Positions 4,826-42,389 are shown, numbered from the stretch's first letter. The stretch is 48,564 bases of DNA from Candidatus Cerribacteria bacterium 'Amazon FNV 2010 28 9' (GCA_003176165.1 PSRQ01000022.1:1-48564); one strand, 5' to 3'. Made by a program: numbers and translations. Notes: generated by a model from the letters alone, not told the origin.

Positions 4826-6103
4826 TTATGGAGTGAGAGAAAAGGTGCTGCTTTGTATGGTTGTGTCCCGTATCGTTAGCAAACATCCTCCCATGAGGAG
4901 GAGGAGAGCCAGAGGGATGATCGGGATCGCGTTGGTAATTCCAGTTGGTAAAAAATAGGCAACACCACTCGTAAACGCAAACGCTGGTAAAGTGATCCAA
5001 CGGATCGTTGTATTTCCCATGGTTTGCACCACCGCCAGGATCAGACCACACAGTGATGCCTCCAACAGTTCCGTCAGTGATCCCTGAATGGCGATATACA
5101 CGAGGAACACTCCTAGCAGGAGGAGCAGATGTGTGTCGATGTGTTTCTGACGCCGCACCCACCCGATTCCACAGACTGCTGTGAGTGCAAGCAACCCCTT
5201 TTGAAAGGTAGCCATGCTGCTCGCGAAGGGTGTAAATCCCAAGAATCGGTAACTATATGCTTCAAATGAAGCATTCGTTCCCTTGGGGACGATCCACCAG
5301 GGATAATTGATGTGGGCACTCAAGAGAAACTGTACATAGGAGGCACACAATGTCCCGAGCTGGGGTCCAGCAAAGAACACGATAGGGAGTGACGCCACCC
5401 CCAGAGCAATGCTACTGCCGCGTACGAACGCGCCTCGTTTGGAGGTGAGCAGGAGGATTGCTAGCCATACAAATATAAATTGAGGCTTGATACAAGCACT
5501 CACTATGCCTGCAGCTCCGGCCAACTGGTACTTGCCTTTTGATGTGGCAAACACCTGAAGAACCATGAGGAAAATCAATGGGCAAGCCATGTTTCCCGTA
5601 TGGATATTCATAAGATAATTGGTTGAAACGAATGCCAGACCAAAAAAAATCCGTGCATTCCATGTCCGTCGCTTTTCCTCTGGAATCATAGACCAGATCA
5701 TGATCCAGGAGGCGAGATAGCACATTGCGCTCACTATCCCTAGACCAAGCTGTATTTCCTTGTCAGAAAAGAAGCGAACCAAGACCGTCATCCATCCCAA
5801 AAATTGAGGCGGATATTGGAAAATGAGTTGATCCGGCCACGGACTCATAAAGTACTGAAACGTCCCAGTCGATAATTGGTGTGCTGCTGTCAGATACACC
5901 CGTAAATCGACATCTGGGTCAAACAGACTATTCATCTGGAAGGAGGGCGGTTTGGTGAATTTCAAATACATGACCATACACCAAAAAATTCCTCCTACGA
6001 AACCCAAGAGGAGGAGAGGAGACCAGAATTTGAATATCCCCCAGAAAGAGGAGGGCGTGTGCTCGTTTGGCTTGCCTTTGAGAGGCAGCGAAATGGTTGA
6101 CAT
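4826..6103 (-). CDS. polytopic membrane protein, GT-C / DUF2029-like glycosyltransferase (tentative)
   Basis: 425-aa ORF with more than 10 hydrophobic spans. The architecture resembles GT87/DUF2029 mannosyltransferase-like proteins, recalled from memory and not searched. Confidence 0.45.
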   Translation of the reverse strand: MSTISLPLKGKPNEHTPSSFWGIFKFWSPLLLLGFVGGIFWCMVMYLKFTKPPSFQMNSLFDPDVDLRVYLTAAHQLSTGTFQYFMSPWPDQLIFQYPPQFLGWMTVLVRFFSDKEIQLGLGIVSAMCYLASWIMIWSMIPEEKRRTWNARIFFGLAFVSTNYLMNIHTGNMACPLIFLMVLQVFATSKGKYQLAGAAGIVSACIKPQFIFVWLAILLLTSKRGAFVRGSSIALGVASLPIVFFAGPQLGTLCASYVQFLLSAHINYPWWIVPKGTNASFEAYSYRFLGFTPFASSMATFQKGLLALTAVCGIGWVRRQKHIDTHLLLLLGVFLVYIAIQGSLTELLEASLCGLILAVVQTMGNTTIRWITLPAFAFTSGVAYFLPTGITNAIPIIPLALLLLMGGCLLTIRDTTIQSSTFSLTP

Positions 6104-6304: not shown

Positions 6305-6423
6305 AAAAGTGGTTTGAAGCACCAGAAGTGCACCCACTTTTGATCCAAGTAACAACACCCGCCTCCTCGGCGGGGGAAACCAAGATATCAAAAGGAGGGT
6401 GATTTTTTTTACCCTCAAACCAT
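6305..6423 (+). promoter_or_regulatory. structured 5' leader with SD-sequestering hairpin
   Basis: Nested hairpin AAAAGTGG..GCAC cagaa GTGC..CCACTTTT (6305-6341), then CCCGCC tcctc GGCGGG. GGAGGGT (6394-6400) pairs with ACCCTC (6411-16) just before ATG 6424. Confidence 0.4.
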
Positions 6424-9278: not shown

Positions 9279-10169
9279 ATGTTTATTGGGGGACATGTTA
9301 GCGCAGCGGGTGGAATTAGCTTGGCGTATGGACGAGCCAAAGAGATTGGGGGCAATGCCGTCCAAATTTTTTCTGCAAGTCCTCGTGTGTGGACACGTAA
9401 AGATATAGCACAAAGCGAAATTGATCGCTGCCTGCAATTTCAAAAAGAGTTGGGTATTACAAAAACAGTTATTCACGCCATTTATTTAGTCAATCTTGCC
9501 TCGGATAACAAAGAGTTGGTTGAAAAATCACGCAACTGTATTGAATTTGATTTACGTGTGGATGCGGCACTACATGGGAGTGGTGTTGTGGTGCATGTGG
9601 GCAGTCATCAAGGAAAAGGATTTGAGGCGGTCTTTGATCAGCTCGTACATGAGATTAAAATCATTCTTTCCAATACTCCTGAAAATTCCACCTTTCTCAT
9701 CGAAAATAGTGCAGGACAAAATGGAAAAATTGCGTCGGATTTGAGTGAAATTCGCCGTCTCATCGACGCAGTGGGTTCGCCTCGATTGGGGTGGTGCTTG
9801 GATACGTGTCATGCATTTTGCGCAGGATACGAGCTAGAGAACTCATTAAATTCTCCCCTTTCGCACCAACCACCCCTAACCCCTCCTTCGGAAGGAGGGG
9901 AATCAAAAAATGTAATTGAAGAAATTGATCGATTACAGTTGTGGGATACCCTGAAGGTCGTACATGTGAATGACTCGCGTGACTCGTTTGATAGTGGTCG
10001 TGATCGTCACGAAAATATTGGTGAGGGAAGCATCGGAGATGATGTGTTTCGTTCCTTTTTCTCGCATGAAAAGATCCGCACACTTCCGCTCATTATAGAA
10101 GTACCTGGGATTGATCACAAGAGTGGGCCGGATAAAGAGAACATAGAACGAGTGAAAAGGTTGATGTAA
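9279..10169 (+). CDS. nfo: endonuclease IV (AP endonuclease family 2)
   Basis: MFIGGHVSAAGG, IENSAGQ, LDTCHAFCAGY and HVNDS..RDRHENIGEG motifs. Confidence 0.9.
   Translation: MFIGGHVSAAGGISLAYGRAKEIGGNAVQIFSASPRVWTRKDIAQSEIDRCLQFQKELGITKTVIHAIYLVNLASDNKELVEKSRNCIEFDLRVDAALHGSGVVVHVGSHQGKGFEAVFDQLVHEIKIILSNTPENSTFLIENSAGQNGKIASDLSEIRRLIDAVGSPRLGWCLDTCHAFCAGYELENSLNSPLSHQPPLTPPSEGGESKNVIEEIDRLQLWDTLKVVHVNDSRDSFDSGRDRHENIGEGSIGDDVFRSFFSHEKIRTLPLIIEVPGIDHKSGPDKENIERVKRLM
9853..9903. repeat. CCCCTCC-type hairpin element inserted in frame in nfo
   Basis: TTCTCCCCTTTCG..CCACCCCTAA then CCCCTCCTT cgg AAGGAGGGG (9880-9900). The segment CCACCCC..GGAGGGG (about 9869-9901) matches 28/33 with 45874-45906. 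It encodes SPLSHQPPLTPPSEGGE. Confidence 0.7.
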
Positions 10170-10177
10170 TACTCAAC

Positions 10178-10283
10178 TTTGTCATCTCGACCGTGCCAAG
10201 TAATCTTGGCAGTGGAGAGATCCCTTTCAGATCCATCCGAAAGCGATTCCTCATCTGCGCTTCGCTCCGTTCGGAATGACAAG
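10178..10283 (+). repeat. MITE-like element about 100 bp long (GTCATC..GAATGAC termini)
   Basis: About 66 of the first 75 positions are identical to the reverse complement of 33281-33375. Lies in the nfo-folD spacer. Confidence 0.75.
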
Positions 10284-10324: not shown

Positions 10325-11311
10325 ATGAGTATTATTTTCGACGGAAAAGCATTCGCACACAAAAAAGAACTCCAACTCAAAAAAGAAGTTGATGATTTGC
10401 GTTCGAGGGGCATTGTTTTACGTGTCAAAACGTTCACGTTCAAAGAAGATGCGGGAAGTATGTTGTACACGCGACTCAAAAAAGAAGCAGCGGCACGCAT
10501 TGGCATCATGTACGAACCAGTTGAATATTCTCTTCACGACGATATTGAACAAATTGCTGAGGCTATTAAAACAGCAAGCGAAGAGAAGGGCATTACGGGG
10601 GTGATGGTGCAAAAACCGGCAAAAGCAGTGTTTAACCAGGAGAGCATTGTCAACAGAAATTTTGAGGATTGGTGGTCAACTTTGACCGCAGCGATCGATT
10701 CCAACAAAGATGTGGATTGTTTGACCAAAGAAAATCTGGAAAGAATCTACAATCTTTCTCCCCTTTCGAAGGGGAGAATACAAGAGGAGTTGGTGGATGG
10801 AGGGGAATACGTGATTCCTGCTACTGTACGAGCTTGTCTTGCAATTTTGGAAGAGGCAAAGCGTGTGTTGAGCATTTCAAACGAAGAATGGAAAAAGAAA
10901 AAAACGCTTGTTATTGGACGATCAGATATTGTGGGGAAACCGTTGGCAGCGTTGTTGAAACAGCGATGTGCAACAGTTGAGAACTGGGGAAGAAAAGAGT
11001 TGGAGAAAAGTATAAAGAAATTTTCAATTTTCAATTTTCAATTTTCAAAAAACATACATAAGAGAGATCATTTTTTAACAACTGACTTCGACATCATTAT
11101 TTCTGCCGTTGGGAAACCAAATTTAATCACAGGAACAAGGGTGAAAGAAGGGGCGATCGTCATCGACGTCGGTGCTCCAAAAGGTGATGTGGAGCGCGAA
11201 AGCGTGGAGTCTACAGCTTCTTTTCTTACTCCTGTTCCCGGTGGAGTTGGTCCCATGACTGTGATATGTTTAATGGAGAGTATTGTAGAGATTGGTAAGA
11301 ATTTTCTCTAA
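10325..11311 (+). CDS. folD: bifunctional methylenetetrahydrofolate dehydrogenase/cyclohydrolase
   Basis: VIGRSDIVGKPLAALL, ISAVGKP, VIDVG and LTPVPGGVGPMT motifs. At 328 aa it carries two extra segments. Confidence 0.9.
   Translation: MSIIFDGKAFAHKKELQLKKEVDDLRSRGIVLRVKTFTFKEDAGSMLYTRLKKEAAARIGIMYEPVEYSLHDDIEQIAEAIKTASEEKGITGVMVQKPAKAVFNQESIVNRNFEDWWSTLTAAIDSNKDVDCLTKENLERIYNLSPLSKGRIQEELVDGGEYVIPATVRACLAILEEAKRVLSISNEEWKKKKTLVIGRSDIVGKPLAALLKQRCATVENWGRKELEKSIKKFSIFNFQFSKNIHKRDHFLTTDFDIIISAVGKPNLITGTRVKEGAIVIDVGAPKGDVERESVESTASFLTPVPGGVGPMTVICLMESIVEIGKNFL
10753..10810. repeat. hairpin element in frame in folD
   Basis: TCTCCCCTT tcg AAGGGGAGA (10757-10777, 9-bp arms) plus a G-rich tail. 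It shares the 13-mer TTCTCCCCTTTCG with the nfo insert. Confidence 0.65.
11018..11051. repeat. tandem heptamer array AATTTTC x4 in frame in folD
   Basis: Copies at 11019-25, 11026-32, 11033-39 and 11040-46. It encodes FSIFNFQFS. Confidence 0.85.
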
Positions 11312-11320
11312 AGGAGGAAT

Positions 11321-11782
11321 ATGTCAGAAGATATGCAGGGACCCACGGAACAAGGTCAGTATCTCATGGATAGAAAGCAACAAATTGAAAATGAGCAACC
11401 TCGCGCCGTCAAAGAAGATGCGCAGCAACGTAAAGAAAGGATGGGTCTTCTGCGGCGTTTATTCCATTCGTTTGGAAGACGCAACGATACAGGGTGGCTT
11501 AAAAAGGAAGTTGAGGATAGGGGAGGGACCCTCTCACCAGAGGAAGATAACATAAATCTGGAGCATGAATTACCTCCAGTTGATGCTATTGAGGCAGAAG
11601 AGCAGAACCTGCCTCCTCTTCGTCCAGTTAAATATGTAGAGCCTTATAAGCCAAGTGATCTTCATATGACTGCCAGAAGTAAGGCTAAAGAAGTTTTGCA
11701 CGCAGCTGTTGATGAAAATGATTACTCCAAGGCTTCCCGAGTAAGTGCTAATTTAAATAATCTGCGCAATCCTCAACAATAA
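11321..11782 (+). CDS. charged hypothetical protein
   Basis: 153-aa ORF with RBS AAAGGAGGA directly upstream. Confidence 0.5.
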   Translation: MSEDMQGPTEQGQYLMDRKQQIENEQPRAVKEDAQQRKERMGLLRRLFHSFGRRNDTGWLKKEVEDRGGTLSPEEDNINLEHELPPVDAIEAEEQNLPPLRPVKYVEPYKPSDLHMTARSKAKEVLHAAVDENDYSKASRVSANLNNLRNPQQ

Positions 11783-20490: not shown

Positions 20491-20640
20491 AAAAATTTTC
20501 AATTCTCAATTTCCAGTACATATTTAAATGATGTAATGAATAGTTTGAATTATTGTAACATTGAAAATTCAATGCAAATTAAACATTGCATAATTGTAAA
20601 TTGCTCTTGACGCTTTTCGCTTCACGCTTTACGCTGTCAC
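20491..20640. repeat. block of degenerate tandem heptamer arrays in the nth-rdgB spacer
   Basis: TTCAATT CTCAATT (20491-20519). AACATTG AAAATTC AATGCAA ATTAAAC ATTGCAT AATTGTA AATTGCT (20557-20605). CTTGACG CTTTTCG CTTCACG CTTTACG CTGTCAC (20606-20640). Confidence 0.75.
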
Positions 20641-21850: not shown

Positions 21851-21878
21851 CAATTTTCAATATTCAATGTTCAACTTA
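21851..21878. repeat. tandem heptamer array CAANNTT x4
   Basis: CAATTTT CAATATT CAATGTT CAACTTA. Its reverse complement matches AACATTGAAAATT at 20557-20570 (about 13/14). Confidence 0.65.
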
Positions 21879-31194: not shown

Positions 31195-31308
31195 TTGTCA
31201 TCCTCATGAAAATGAGGATCATGAAACGCTTGGATTGATCCGTTCGTTTCGGTTTGATCAGAACCTTTCTCACAAAGGGATGATCCTCGCCTGCGCGAGG
31301 ATGACAAA
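31195..31308. repeat. GTCATCC..GGATGAC MITE-like element with two internal hairpins
   Basis: TTGTCATCCTCAT gaaa ATGAGGAT ... ATCCTCGC ctgc GCGAGGATGACAA. Confidence 0.7.
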
Positions 31309-33280: not shown

Positions 33281-33375
33281 TTGTCATTTCGAGCGAAGTC
33301 GAGAAATCGCTTTCGGATTTTTCCTGAAAGTGATCTCTCCACTGCCAAGATTACTTGGCGCGGTCAAGATGACAA
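33281..33375 (-). repeat. MITE-like element, inverted copy of 10178-10283
   Basis: Its reverse complement aligns with 10178-10283, sharing TTGTCATCT.GACCG.GCCAAGTAATCTTGGCAGTGGAGAGATC. Confidence 0.75.
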
Positions 33376-34990: not shown

Positions 34991-35866
34991 TCATGAGTCA
35001 ATCATGAGCTTGATAATCTCCTCTATCATCCATTGATGATCCGCAATCCCAGCAACCATTGCAGGAGTAATACCCAACGATCGTTTTGGATTGAGGGATT
35101 GATGTGGTCTGCAGAAGTTGTAATACATGAAATGCAGTGCAACCGCAGCTTCTAGGTTTTCGACTTTCTTGGAAAAGCCATTCGTAAGACGAGTAAATCT
35201 GCGCATACTCATGCGCATCGTGAGATTCTGACGTTCAACAAAGCTTGTGGAGATAAATTTCTTCTTTGGTCTACCACTGATTTTCTTTTTCTCCATGCCG
35301 ATACATTCATGTGGCGAGTAACGACGTTCATGTTCCTCCGTTTCAAAGAAAATGCGACCATACTGCTTCTCAACCATCCCGTAGTGCACGCGCTTCCCGA
35401 AAGTACCTTGAACAGCGTTCTCGTAAGCACGTAGACCATCGGTGCTGAGCTGCACCTTATTCTTCAGTCTTGGTTCCAGATCTTCCATGAAAGTGTACGC
35501 AGACTCCTCATCTCGATGACCGATGAACCATGAAATTACGAGTTTTGAATCACTATCCAGTGCTACCCAGGTCCATATGGTTCCATATCCTTCCTTTCCT
35601 TGAAGGTCTTCAGGAAGGTTCTTTTGTTTGGCGTAACAAAATGACCAGATCTCATCACATTCAATCCGAGAGCAATGAAGGTTTACCAATACTTCATCTT
35701 GATATGCTGAACACGCCTTTCCAACCCGCACCAAAAGCCTCGTAACTGTTCCTTTGGCTGTTCCCGTCATTCGACAGGTGGCACGAATGGAATTGCCTTC
35801 TACAAGGCAAGAAAGGATCTGACATTGCTTCTCTTTACTCAAGACGTTCATCCCTATATTATACAT
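34991..35866 (-). CDS. IS1 family DDE transposase
   Basis: HTH NSIRATCRMTGTAKGTV. ECDEIWSF, LSTDGLRAY and FVERQNLTMRMSMRRFTRLTNGFSKKVENL match the IS1 InsB-type catalytic core. Alternative start ATG 35851. Confidence 0.8.
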   Translation of the reverse strand: MYNIGMNVLSKEKQCQILSCLVEGNSIRATCRMTGTAKGTVTRLLVRVGKACSAYQDEVLVNLHCSRIECDEIWSFCYAKQKNLPEDLQGKEGYGTIWTWVALDSDSKLVISWFIGHRDEESAYTFMEDLEPRLKNKVQLSTDGLRAYENAVQGTFGKRVHYGMVEKQYGRIFFETEEHERRYSPHECIGMEKKKISGRPKKKFISTSFVERQNLTMRMSMRRFTRLTNGFSKKVENLEAAVALHFMYYNFCRPHQSLNPKRSLGITPAMVAGIADHQWMIEEIIKLMIDS

Positions 35867-40573: not shown

Positions 40574-40604
40574 GCATTCTAGTGGCTAGTTTTCCTTGTT
40601 GTTT

Positions 40605-40633
40605 GAAAATTAAAAATTTGTAAATTGAAAATT
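40605..40633. repeat. left inverted heptamer arm flanking dnaX
   Basis: GAAAATT AAAAATT T GTAAATT GAAAATT, 27/29 identical to the reverse complement of 42317-42345. Confidence 0.85.
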
Positions 40634-40640
40634 GATTTGT

Positions 40641-42314
40641 ATGTCTTGGTATCGTCAATATCGACCACAAACTGTAGCTGGTCTTCACATCACTCCCGTG
40701 CGGGAGAATTTTTTACATATCTTGGAAAGTGGATCCTTTGCGCATGCGTACCTTCTCTGTGGTCCCAAAGGAACGGGGAAGACAAGCGGTGCACGGATAT
40801 TGGCAAAAGTGTTGAACTGTGAAAAAAATAGGGAAACAATACAGAGGGGATGGGTTGGGGATCAGGGGTTAGAAAAGAAAGCGGAAAGTGGAAAGGGGAA
40901 AACGCTTGACGCTAAACGCTTCACTCTCTGTGAGCCATGCAATGTATGTCCAACGTGTATCGCCATCACCAATGGAACGAGTATGTGTGTGACAGAAATG
41001 GATGCGGCGAGCAATCGTGGGATTGATGATATTCGAGAGTTGACCACGAGGGTGGGGCTTTCTCCAGCAGATGGAGTAGTCAGTGTGTACATTATTGATG
41101 AAGTGCATATGCTCACAACTGAGGCATTTAATGCCCTGTTGAAAGTGTTGGAAGAGCCACCACAGCACGTTGTCTTTATTTTAGCGACAACAGAGCGTCA
41201 CAAAGTTCCTGAGACGATTTTGTCCCGTTGTCAGCTGATCGCGTATCGCAAAGCCACTATTGATGAGGTATGGGTGGCCCTGCGCGCGATTGCAACGGCC
41301 GAAAGAATTGAGGCAAGTGATGAAGTGTTGCGACGGATCGCCACTCTTGCAGATGGGAGTTTACGTGATGGAGTGAAGTTGTTTGAGCAGGTTGGAAAAG
41401 GGAAAACGAGTGTCACCTTGGACGAAGTGAATAGCTCACTTGGAGAGGGAAATAGTGAGATTGTGGAACAATTCATCACTGCGTTAGCAAAAAAAGATAT
41501 CGAGCGCATCCTTACACTTTGTTCTACCCTTGAACAGGGAAGCATCAATGGAGCTCAGTTTCAAAAAGATGTTCTTTCGTCACTGCATGCACGACTCATT
41601 GGAGCCCCTGCAAAAAAGAATCCCCATTTTCCAACCTATGTGGCACTGTTACAAAAGTTAAACGTTGCTATTTCTCCCAATCTTCCCATTCCTTGGCTTC
41701 CATTTGAACTCGCAGCAATGGAGTGGTGTCTCTCCTCTTGTCATTCCGTAGGAGGCAGCGAAGCGTGCCTGCATACGGAATCCACTAAAACTGAACTCAA
41801 TTCGTTGTCTGAGCGAAAAAAGTCAAGCGATAAACCAGATGCAACATTCAAAAATGAGGAGCAAGCAAGTTCTACTCTTGATTCTTTACCCTTAACCCTT
41901 CCAAAAGAAAAAGAAGTTGTTGATGTAAAAAAAAAGAATGAAGAGCCTCTTGAGTTAGAAAGTATCCCCATTGATTTTCAAACATTTCTCTCCTCCTGGC
42001 ATAGTGTATTGCAGTTACTCAAAAGTAAAAACTCTTCACTGGAGGCATTATTACGCTCGACAAAGCCCACAGGTATTGCCGGAAAATATGTTGAAGTCAG
42101 TGTGTCATACAAATTTCACAAAGAGCAACTGGAATTGGATCGCAATTTACTTGTCATCGAAGATGTGTTGTTTGCGATTTATAAATTGAAAATGACGCTA
42201 CGTTTTTCACTCGTTGAAAAAGCAAAGCAAGCTGCCATTTCTCCTGACAGTAATTTGTCGGGAGTGGTACACGATGTATCGCTCGTCAAAGCTGCCGAAG
42301 ATGCATTCCTGTGA
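40641..42314 (+). CDS. dnaX: DNA polymerase III subunit gamma/tau
   Basis: WYRQYRPQT, GPKGTGKTS Walker A, the CEPCNVCPTC zinc module, and the SRC motif (ILSRCQ). Confidence 0.9.
   Translation: MSWYRQYRPQTVAGLHITPVRENFLHILESGSFAHAYLLCGPKGTGKTSGARILAKVLNCEKNRETIQRGWVGDQGLEKKAESGKGKTLDAKRFTLCEPCNVCPTCIAITNGTSMCVTEMDAASNRGIDDIRELTTRVGLSPADGVVSVYIIDEVHMLTTEAFNALLKVLEEPPQHVVFILATTERHKVPETILSRCQLIAYRKATIDEVWVALRAIATAERIEASDEVLRRIATLADGSLRDGVKLFEQVGKGKTSVTLDEVNSSLGEGNSEIVEQFITALAKKDIERILTLCSTLEQGSINGAQFQKDVLSSLHARLIGAPAKKNPHFPTYVALLQKLNVAISPNLPIPWLPFELAAMEWCLSSCHSVGGSEACLHTESTKTELNSLSERKKSSDKPDATFKNEEQASSTLDSLPLTLPKEKEVVDVKKKNEEPLELESIPIDFQTFLSSWHSVLQLLKSKNSSLEALLRSTKPTGIAGKYVEVSVSYKFHKEQLELDRNLLVIEDVLFAIYKLKMTLRFSLVEKAKQAAISPDSNLSGVVHDVSLVKAAEDAFL
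40881..40929. repeat. seven tandem heptamers in frame in the dnaX zinc-module loop
   Basis: GCGGAAA GTGGAAA GGGGAAA ACGCTTG ACGCTAA ACGCTTC ACTCTCT. CTTGACGCT..CGCTTCAC also occurs at 20606-20626. Confidence 0.65.
41738..41783. repeat. GTCATTCCGTAGGAGGCAG..GCCTGCATACGGAATCC element in frame in dnaX
   Basis: Same element type as the secD tail copy (25689-25750). It encodes CHSVGGSEACLHTES. Confidence 0.7.
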
Positions 42315-42316
42315 AA

Positions 42317-42345
42317 AATTTTCAATTTACGAATTTTCAATTTTC
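42317..42345. repeat. right inverted heptamer arm flanking dnaX
   Basis: AATTTTC AATTTAC G AATTTTC AATTTTC, starting 2 nt after the dnaX stop. Confidence 0.85.
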
Positions 42346-42389
42346 ATTCGTCGTGTTACCATAGCGCTGTTAAAAGAAAAAGGAGTCGT

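Follow-up and report, generated by a model that had tools for sequence, protein, structure and literature searches.

Two unrelated pieces of repetitive DNA lie in frame within an apparently functional folD gene of a Candidatus Cerribacteria bacterium

The folD gene of Candidatus Cerribacteria bacterium 'Amazon FNV 2010 28 9', read here from a single stretch of 48,564 nt (the window), is in our judgement probably a working gene that holds two unrelated pieces of the genome's own repetitive DNA, each in a surface loop tolerant of length change, where both would simply be translated and likely have no function of their own (Table 1). A first-pass annotation of the window had described two in-frame repeat-element insertions, and this description stands for the upstream piece (segment a), a dispersed palindromic repeat, but is not supported for the downstream piece (segment b), which is best read as a slippage-prone heptanucleotide microsatellite of an abundant type and not as a mobile element. 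On the simplest account, the two insertions would have been independent of each other.

Table 1. Coordinates of folD, its two in-frame segments and related repeats in the window.
Feature	Position	Strand	Basis
folD CDS, intact, 328 aa	10325–11311	+	ORF, Pfam, PDB matches, AlphaFold, Foldseek, alignment
Segment (a), 54-nt palindromic element A in frame in folD, encodes (L)SPLSKGRIQEELVDGGE	10755–10808	+	sequence, hairpin, shared termini, nhmmer
Element A copy in frame in nfo (CDS 9279–10169), encodes (N)SPLSHQPPLTPPSEGGE, hairpin 9880–9900	9850–9903	+	sequence, nfo alignment
Element A, nfo type, intergenic, between ORF end 45862 and dnaB start 45916	45865–45911	+	alignment, nhmmer
Segment (b), AT-rich stretch of ~66 nt, encodes roughly SIKKFSIFNFQFSKNIHKRDHF	~11004–11069	+	alignment, GC, frames, pLDDT
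Perfect (AATTTTC) x4.3 within segment (b)	11019–11048	+	TRF: period 7, 100% matches, score 60
AATTTTC-type array, intergenic, just upstream of dnaX start (ATG 40641)	40603–40635	-	word counts, inverted repeat, TRF
AATTTTC-type array, intergenic, just past dnaX stop; inverted partner of 40604–40633	42317–42346	+	word counts, TRF
AATTTTC-type array, intergenic, beside start of minus-strand HhH-GPD gene	20494–20515	+	word counts
Degenerate AATTTTC-type array, intergenic	21851–21874	+	word counts, TRF
Degenerate array GAAAGNG x3.6, in frame in dnaX, encodes KKAESGKGK	40877–40901	+	TRF, alignment

With respect to the gene itself, the 328-aa FolD with both segments open in frame that the annotation had reported was recovered by ORF, sequence and Pfam analyses, its 328 codons running uninterrupted through LSPLSKGRIQEELVDGGE (residues 144–161, nt 10754–10807, directly ahead of P165-A166-T167) and KKFSIFNFQFSKNIHKRDHF (residues 231–250). 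Pfam domains PF00763 (THF_DHG_CYH; 6e-15, 55.9 bits, curated cut-off 32.8) and PF02882 (THF_DHG_CYH_C; 4e-34, 117.6 bits, curated cut-off 27) were both found, the second match being broken into two stretches, and solved FolD/MTHFD structures in the PDB were matched with E-values down to 4e-24. In an alignment of 29 FolDs from the clade (the window protein and 28 others), the window protein kept 44 of the 44 family-invariant columns, among them the motifs YxxxK, QxP (QKP), DVD, GRSxxVGxP (GRSxxVGKP) and PVPGGVGP, with Y48/K52, Q96 and D129 intact. An AlphaFold model built with this alignment reached a mean pLDDT of 90.8 and a pTM of 0.90, and Foldseek matched it to human MTHFD1 and other FolD structures with TM-scores of 0.78 (query-normalised) and 0.90 (target-normalised). 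From these sequence and model comparisons, folD looks functional, encoding a FolD with fold and invariant residues intact and with predicted activity.

Comparison with relatives indicated that the two segments are extra. The closest FolDs were 50–57% identical to the window protein (search of 5.8 billion proteins, BLAST identity ~50% at best), and the best GTDB match, at 37% identity to a Candidatus Paceibacterota MAG, came from a profile scan dominated by hits to the universal TPVPGGVGP motif; on this match the lineage was placed, tentatively, in the candidate phyla radiation (CPR). In the 29-sequence alignment both segments were missing from the 28 other FolDs, all closest homologues included. 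Compared with its nearest relatives, the window protein is longer by ~16 residues ahead of the P-A-T motif and by ~22 residues in the interval from the V-x-N-x-G strand to the ISAVGKP strand. Length at the two sites also differs among the other clade members, and unrelated long inserts occur in some of them at site (b) and at a third site, so the window protein is not alone in this group in being a 'long FolD'. The model places its sole low-confidence parts at the same two segments, with pLDDT means of 72 and 52 over the residue blocks of 141–160 (segment a) and 68 and 58 over those of 231–250 (segment b), the lowest block means (52–72) of a protein in which all other blocks stand at 83 or above. 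The alignment and the model thus bear out the earlier suggestion of lineage-specific segments at variable loops, and we consider this reading of both as in-frame additions supported, although, with the nearest FolD only 50–57% identical, some of the sequence in each insert could date from an older loop. Translation across the insert junctions would yield the predicted peptides IYNLSPLSK, IQEELVDGGEYVIPATVR and FSIFNFQFSK.

The surroundings of folD are conserved as well. Besides SHMT, nfo, folD, rpsB and tsf, the window encodes a Peptidase_M50 (RseP-type) protease, secD/secF, a Prs-type ribose-phosphate pyrophosphokinase, a class II aminoacyl-tRNA synthetase (ProRS-like domains), dnaX and dnaB, while searches of the window for tRNA genes and Rfam families returned none of either. 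The SHMT-nfo-folD(-rpsB-tsf) order is kept in relatives, from which we take the window folD locus to be the ancestral one; in these syntenic relatives nfo encodes 284–285 aa and folD 293 aa (L002 and L003) or 326 aa (L001), the latter solely via an N-terminal extension. Between folD and rpsB lies a 153-aa ORF (11321–11782, plus strand) that has no Pfam match, at a site that is empty or occupied by another small ORF in relatives. This ancestral synteny, together with 328 open codons and intact invariant residues and fold, weighs against a reading in which folD is not expressed as read, whether as a pseudogene with an intact copy elsewhere, as a gene whose inserts are bypassed or removed, or as a product of assembly artefacts. 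Such a reading gains something from the four insertions that fall within 1.3 kb (nfo, the nfo–folD spacer and two in folD) and from the room for an intact paralogue beyond the one 48.6-kb contig. Sequencing reads are longer than any of these repeats, however, the flanks are colinear with homologues, and there is neither a stop codon nor a take-off/landing pair for translational bypassing, so that we regard this reading as highly improbable.

For segment (a), the palindrome that had been described ahead of P-A-T (TCTCCCCTT-tcg-AAGGGGAGA, 10757–10777, followed by a G-rich tail) is present exactly, with a perfect stem that extends even further, to 10 bp (10756–10778). The 13-mer TTCTCCCCTTTCG, which the annotation had noted as common to the folD and nfo inserts, occurs at 9851 (nfo) and 10756 (folD) only, against an expectation of 0.07 and with two or more occurrences in 0 of 100 shuffles. 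Beyond this, both copies end in the 10-mer GGAGGGGAAT at the same spacing and phase, giving TTCTCCCCTTTCG-N30-GGAGGGGAAT at 9851–9903 and 10756–10808, read in one codon phase as SPLS-(10 aa)-GGE; a looser pattern, TTCTCCCCTTTCG-N{20,40}-GGAGGGGAA, has these 2 matches in the window, both with the 30-nt interior in the same phase, and none in 100 shuffles. The nfo product, encoded 905 nt upstream of the folD copy, has ~17 extra residues compared with two syntenic relatives, and taking the 18 codons out of nfo restores the loop length of those relatives. A third copy, intergenic and of nfo type, is identical to the nfo copy at 35 of 40 positions (score 52 vs 17.8 +/- 3.6, 0 of 1000 shuffles), and an nhmmer profile of the three recovered exactly three full copies in the window (folD E=3e-11; intergenic E=6e-8), along with a hairpin-only, terminator-like relative at 496–527. 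We therefore interpret segment (a) as a member of a small dispersed palindromic family (element A), in frame in nfo and folD and present at one intergenic site, a reading that the sequence comparisons support.

The composition and folding of element A were less telling than its architecture. Its GC content is 0.51–0.64 against 0.44 for the window, and since nearly every reading frame through it is open, its freedom from stops says little; the informative features are its constant length of 54 nt and the ends and codon phase that its copies have in common. The hairpins have folding energies of about -15 kcal/mol, and the folD hairpin context is no stabler than shuffled sequence (z = +0.24), an unremarkable score because shuffling leaves the C-rich and G-rich halves just as able to pair. 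The hairpins were rejected as terminators since no T-tail follows them, and no terminator-like sites were found inside folD. The two genic copies also differ in construction, with the perfect nfo hairpin (CCCCTCCTT/AAGGAGGGG) built with the 3' terminus of the element and the folD hairpin (TTCTCCCCTT/AAGGGGAGAA) with the 5' terminus. Their 30-nt interiors are unlike, and the folD interior aligns best to the reverse-complemented nfo interior (score 34 vs 19.1 +/- 3.7, reached in 2 of 1000 shuffles).

Evidence for mobility was sought at several levels. Inspection of the flanks of the three copies revealed no direct repeat that would mark a target-site duplication, complementarity between the ends TTCTCCCC / GGAGGGGAA is no more than loose, and the window shows no enrichment of the end word ATTCYCCCY and no transposase with element-A-like ends. 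The only transposase-like ORF, at 34991–35866 (minus strand), gives a weak and partial match to an IS1-type DDE transposase (E = 9e-8), and inverted repeats of the element A kind are missing from the sequence around it. Beyond the contig, the two-termini pattern gave no convincing copies in JGI metagenomes; 9 matches were judged to be chance given their unrelated contexts and GC of 47–66% (e.g., a conserved ferredoxin-like ORF). On the relatives' loci, the element A profile gave one weak hairpin-like match only (E = 0.3). These results bear on the alternative that both segments were made in place with no mobile element, segment (b) by slippage and segment (a) by quasi-palindrome template switching, with the nfo–folD likeness arising through gene conversion between sites 905 nt apart. 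The searches for a target-site duplication, a transposase and copies outside the contig, all of which came back empty, fit this alternative, as does the use of different termini for the hairpins in nfo and folD, which implies that the interior was not simply copied. What counts against it is the nfo-type third copy, intergenic and 35 kb off at 35/40 identity, together with the equal 54-nt length, termini and phase in two genes, which better fit a discrete unit than independent local events. We regard this in-place origin of both segments as unlikely.

We instead favor element A as a discrete unit that, given its presence in nfo, in folD and at an intergenic site 35 kb away, would have spread through some copy-and-insert or recombination process. 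The surviving insertions would be those that are a multiple of three in length, stop-free and placed in tolerant loops. This view draws on a small sample, as three copies are visible in one 48.6-kb contig and the folD interior is unlike the other two.

Segment (b) differs from segment (a) in kind. The AATTTTC x4 that had been noted within it is a perfect tract, the top-scoring period-7 array in the window by TRF, and it sits in a stretch with a GC content of 0.20 that is open in 1 of 6 frames. Because 7 and 3 have no common factor, all forward frames of (AATTTTC)n yield one and the same stop-free peptide, and the reverse orientation gives TGA stops; segment (b) lies in the sole orientation and frame that are free of stops. 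Since a 7-nt unit is not divisible by three, a change in copy number shifts the folD frame, such that one or two units gained or lost (+/-7, +/-14 nt) bring in a TAA just downstream, and three units (21 nt) gained or lost keep the frame. Segment (b) most likely grew in place via replication slippage. The perfect tract is a liability, as a gain or loss of one or two units would place a stop right after it and turn folD off.

The wider set of heptamer arrays makes this slippage origin the simpler one for segment (b). Period-7 arrays number 11 in the window, compared with a mean of 1.23 and a maximum of 4 in 40 first-order Markov simulations (~9-fold), and tandem AATTTTC pairs with at most 1 mismatch number 9 against 0.15 expected. 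Their units are diverse (AATTTTC, CGCTTTA, AGGGNAC, GAAAGNG), most arrays lie directly upstream of start codons, and the intergenic arrays are 77–88% perfect by TRF compared with the fully perfect folD tract. As the annotation had proposed, the AATTTTC word forms arms around dnaX, which is bracketed by a 30-nt inverted repeat (40604–40633 / 42317–42346) that is 93% complementary; nucleotide-level repeat counterparts elsewhere in the window are present for both folD segments, as it had also proposed. Within dnaX, KKAESGKGK falls among 13 in-frame residues that are missing from the closest DnaX (72% identity), so heptamer arrays in coding sequence are not unique to folD.

Arrays at 20606–20640, 47983–48018, 47627–47660 and 47242–47264, together with those at 40603–40635 and 20494–20515 listed in Table 1, lie within ~5–10 nt upstream of starts, at the expected Shine-Dalgarno position, with units of CGCTTTA, AGGGNAC and TTGAAAA type, and two CGCTTTA-type arrays are 78% complementary to one another. 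[quoted passage not shown] Among syntenic relatives, L084 carries arrays plus a CCCCT hairpin around tsf (5804–5836, 6316–6347 and 6359–6379; heptamers ATTTGAA and AATTATA, with CCTCCCCTTTTACAGGGGAGG), and L001 carries arrays of the 9-mer GAYTAGTAG, with ATTCCCATNTTCATGGGAAT, plus a hairpin in both spacers flanking nfo (4897–4969 and 5919–5992). Such an 'array plus hairpin' intergenic punctuation may therefore be a clade-wide trait.

Separately, the window holds three intergenic elements of ~95–113 nt (10179–10283, plus; 33282–33375, minus; 31195–31307, plus) that have TTGTCATC at the start and GATGACAA at the end; between two of them a 52-nt core is 94% identical. The nfo–folD spacer, which is short or missing in relatives, is taken up by one of the three. 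A 28-mer of the 94%-identical repeat gave 0 matches in genome and metagenome contig collections, and these elements, which match no Rfam family, may be MITE-like or an undescribed small RNA.

A further alternative is that the embedded repeats act as nucleic-acid signals, with the hairpin serving RNA processing, stability or ribosome pausing and the tract serving protein binding or a promoter, or working as a phase-variation switch for folD. This would agree with the period-7 arrays being mostly right ahead of starts, as are TAACTGA repeats (PMC4679880), with hairpins of about -15 kcal/mol, with the truncation of FolD by a one- or two-unit change, and with a sigma-70-like match antisense to the tract (11048–11020, minus strand; TTGAAA, 17 nt, GAAAAT), which is a consensus match only. 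Against it, the hairpin contexts are not stabler than shuffles and have no terminator tail, and AATTTTC arrays show no consistent orientation towards the genes beside them. As for a switch, the folD tract resembles simple-sequence contingency loci in being perfect, within an ORF and built of a unit that is not a multiple of 3, so that copy change means frameshift, but such loci are typically surface or restriction genes, unlike folD, and the benefit is not obvious for a core C1-metabolism enzyme. On balance we find a signalling role quite improbable, and we return to folD as a working gene whose inserts, we infer, are translated and neutral.

Set against known systems, the folD inserts are a well-supported, small-sample example of known phenomena. 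In-frame insertions of Rickettsia palindromic elements (RPEs) and of MITEs into genes are documented (PMC10969869, PMC5896051), and RPEs themselves are ~100–150 bp with a long palindromic structure, form defined families with dozens of copies, and reside in an obligate intracellular alphaproteobacterium (Ogata et al. 2000/2002 in PMC10969869). The likeness to RPEs that the annotation had drawn holds for behaviour but not for family membership. Like RPEs, element A is a short palindrome found both between genes and in frame in unrelated housekeeping genes, encodes a fold-compatible peptide and keeps a shared frame, its nfo and folD copies reading SPLS...GGE in one phase as is characteristic of in-frame RPEs. 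Unlike RPEs, it is 54 nt long with a 9–10-bp hairpin, was seen in three copies in an unrelated uncultured lineage and has genic interiors that are not conserved, such that length and host set it apart, with no sequence relationship known. Bacterial MITEs and small repeats (Coxiella QMITE1/2, ERIC, BOX, Correia; PMC5896051, PMC10969869, PMC3184786) likewise form hairpins, are non-autonomous and occasionally yield in-frame fusions, whereas element A falls at or below the small end of their size range, shows no target-site duplication and no partner insertion sequence in the window, and has ends that form a loose inverted repeat.

The heptamer arrays have counterparts of their own, in the TAACTGA repeats of Beggiatoaceae and cyanobacteria (PMC4679880) and the GGGAATC / GGGGAYT repeats of Xanthomonas and Nostoc (PMC4692102). 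Heptamer repeats are over-represented between genes and occasionally occur in ORFs, with slippage proposed as their origin, and these two classes, like the window arrays, are period-7, of 2–6 copies, mostly intergenic and often right ahead of starts, being tolerated in ORFs only in the stop-free orientation and changing in 7-nt steps (PMC4679880, PMC4692102). The window departs from both classes in having other units, several of which coexist, and in placing a perfect tract midway through an enzyme of core metabolism. The perfect in-ORF tandem repeats of Borgs, which give rise to new disordered protein regions (PMC9879509), resemble the folD tract in creating a new low-complexity, low-confidence protein segment, although their units are multiples of three and the folD unit is 7.

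A broader and more speculative reading, which we hold to be rather unlikely, is that this lineage is under genome-wide, RPE-like colonisation of its housekeeping proteins by its own intergenic repeats, through a one-frame 18-codon palindromic cassette and start-codon heptamer arrays, with the tract making core genes such as folD heritably switchable. If confirmed genome-wide, the observations would carry the idea of selfish DNA in protein genes, for which Rickettsia has so far been the best-documented case, over to an uncultured, free-standing lineage whose cassette, at 18 codons, is much smaller, and would show cleanly how repeats can drive the growth of loops in conserved enzymes. At the level of single genes, such inserts inflate protein length and break profile alignments, as in the split Pfam C-terminal match in FolD, and the heptamer tract gives folD a built-in frameshift hotspot that is relevant to annotators and to metabolic reconstruction.
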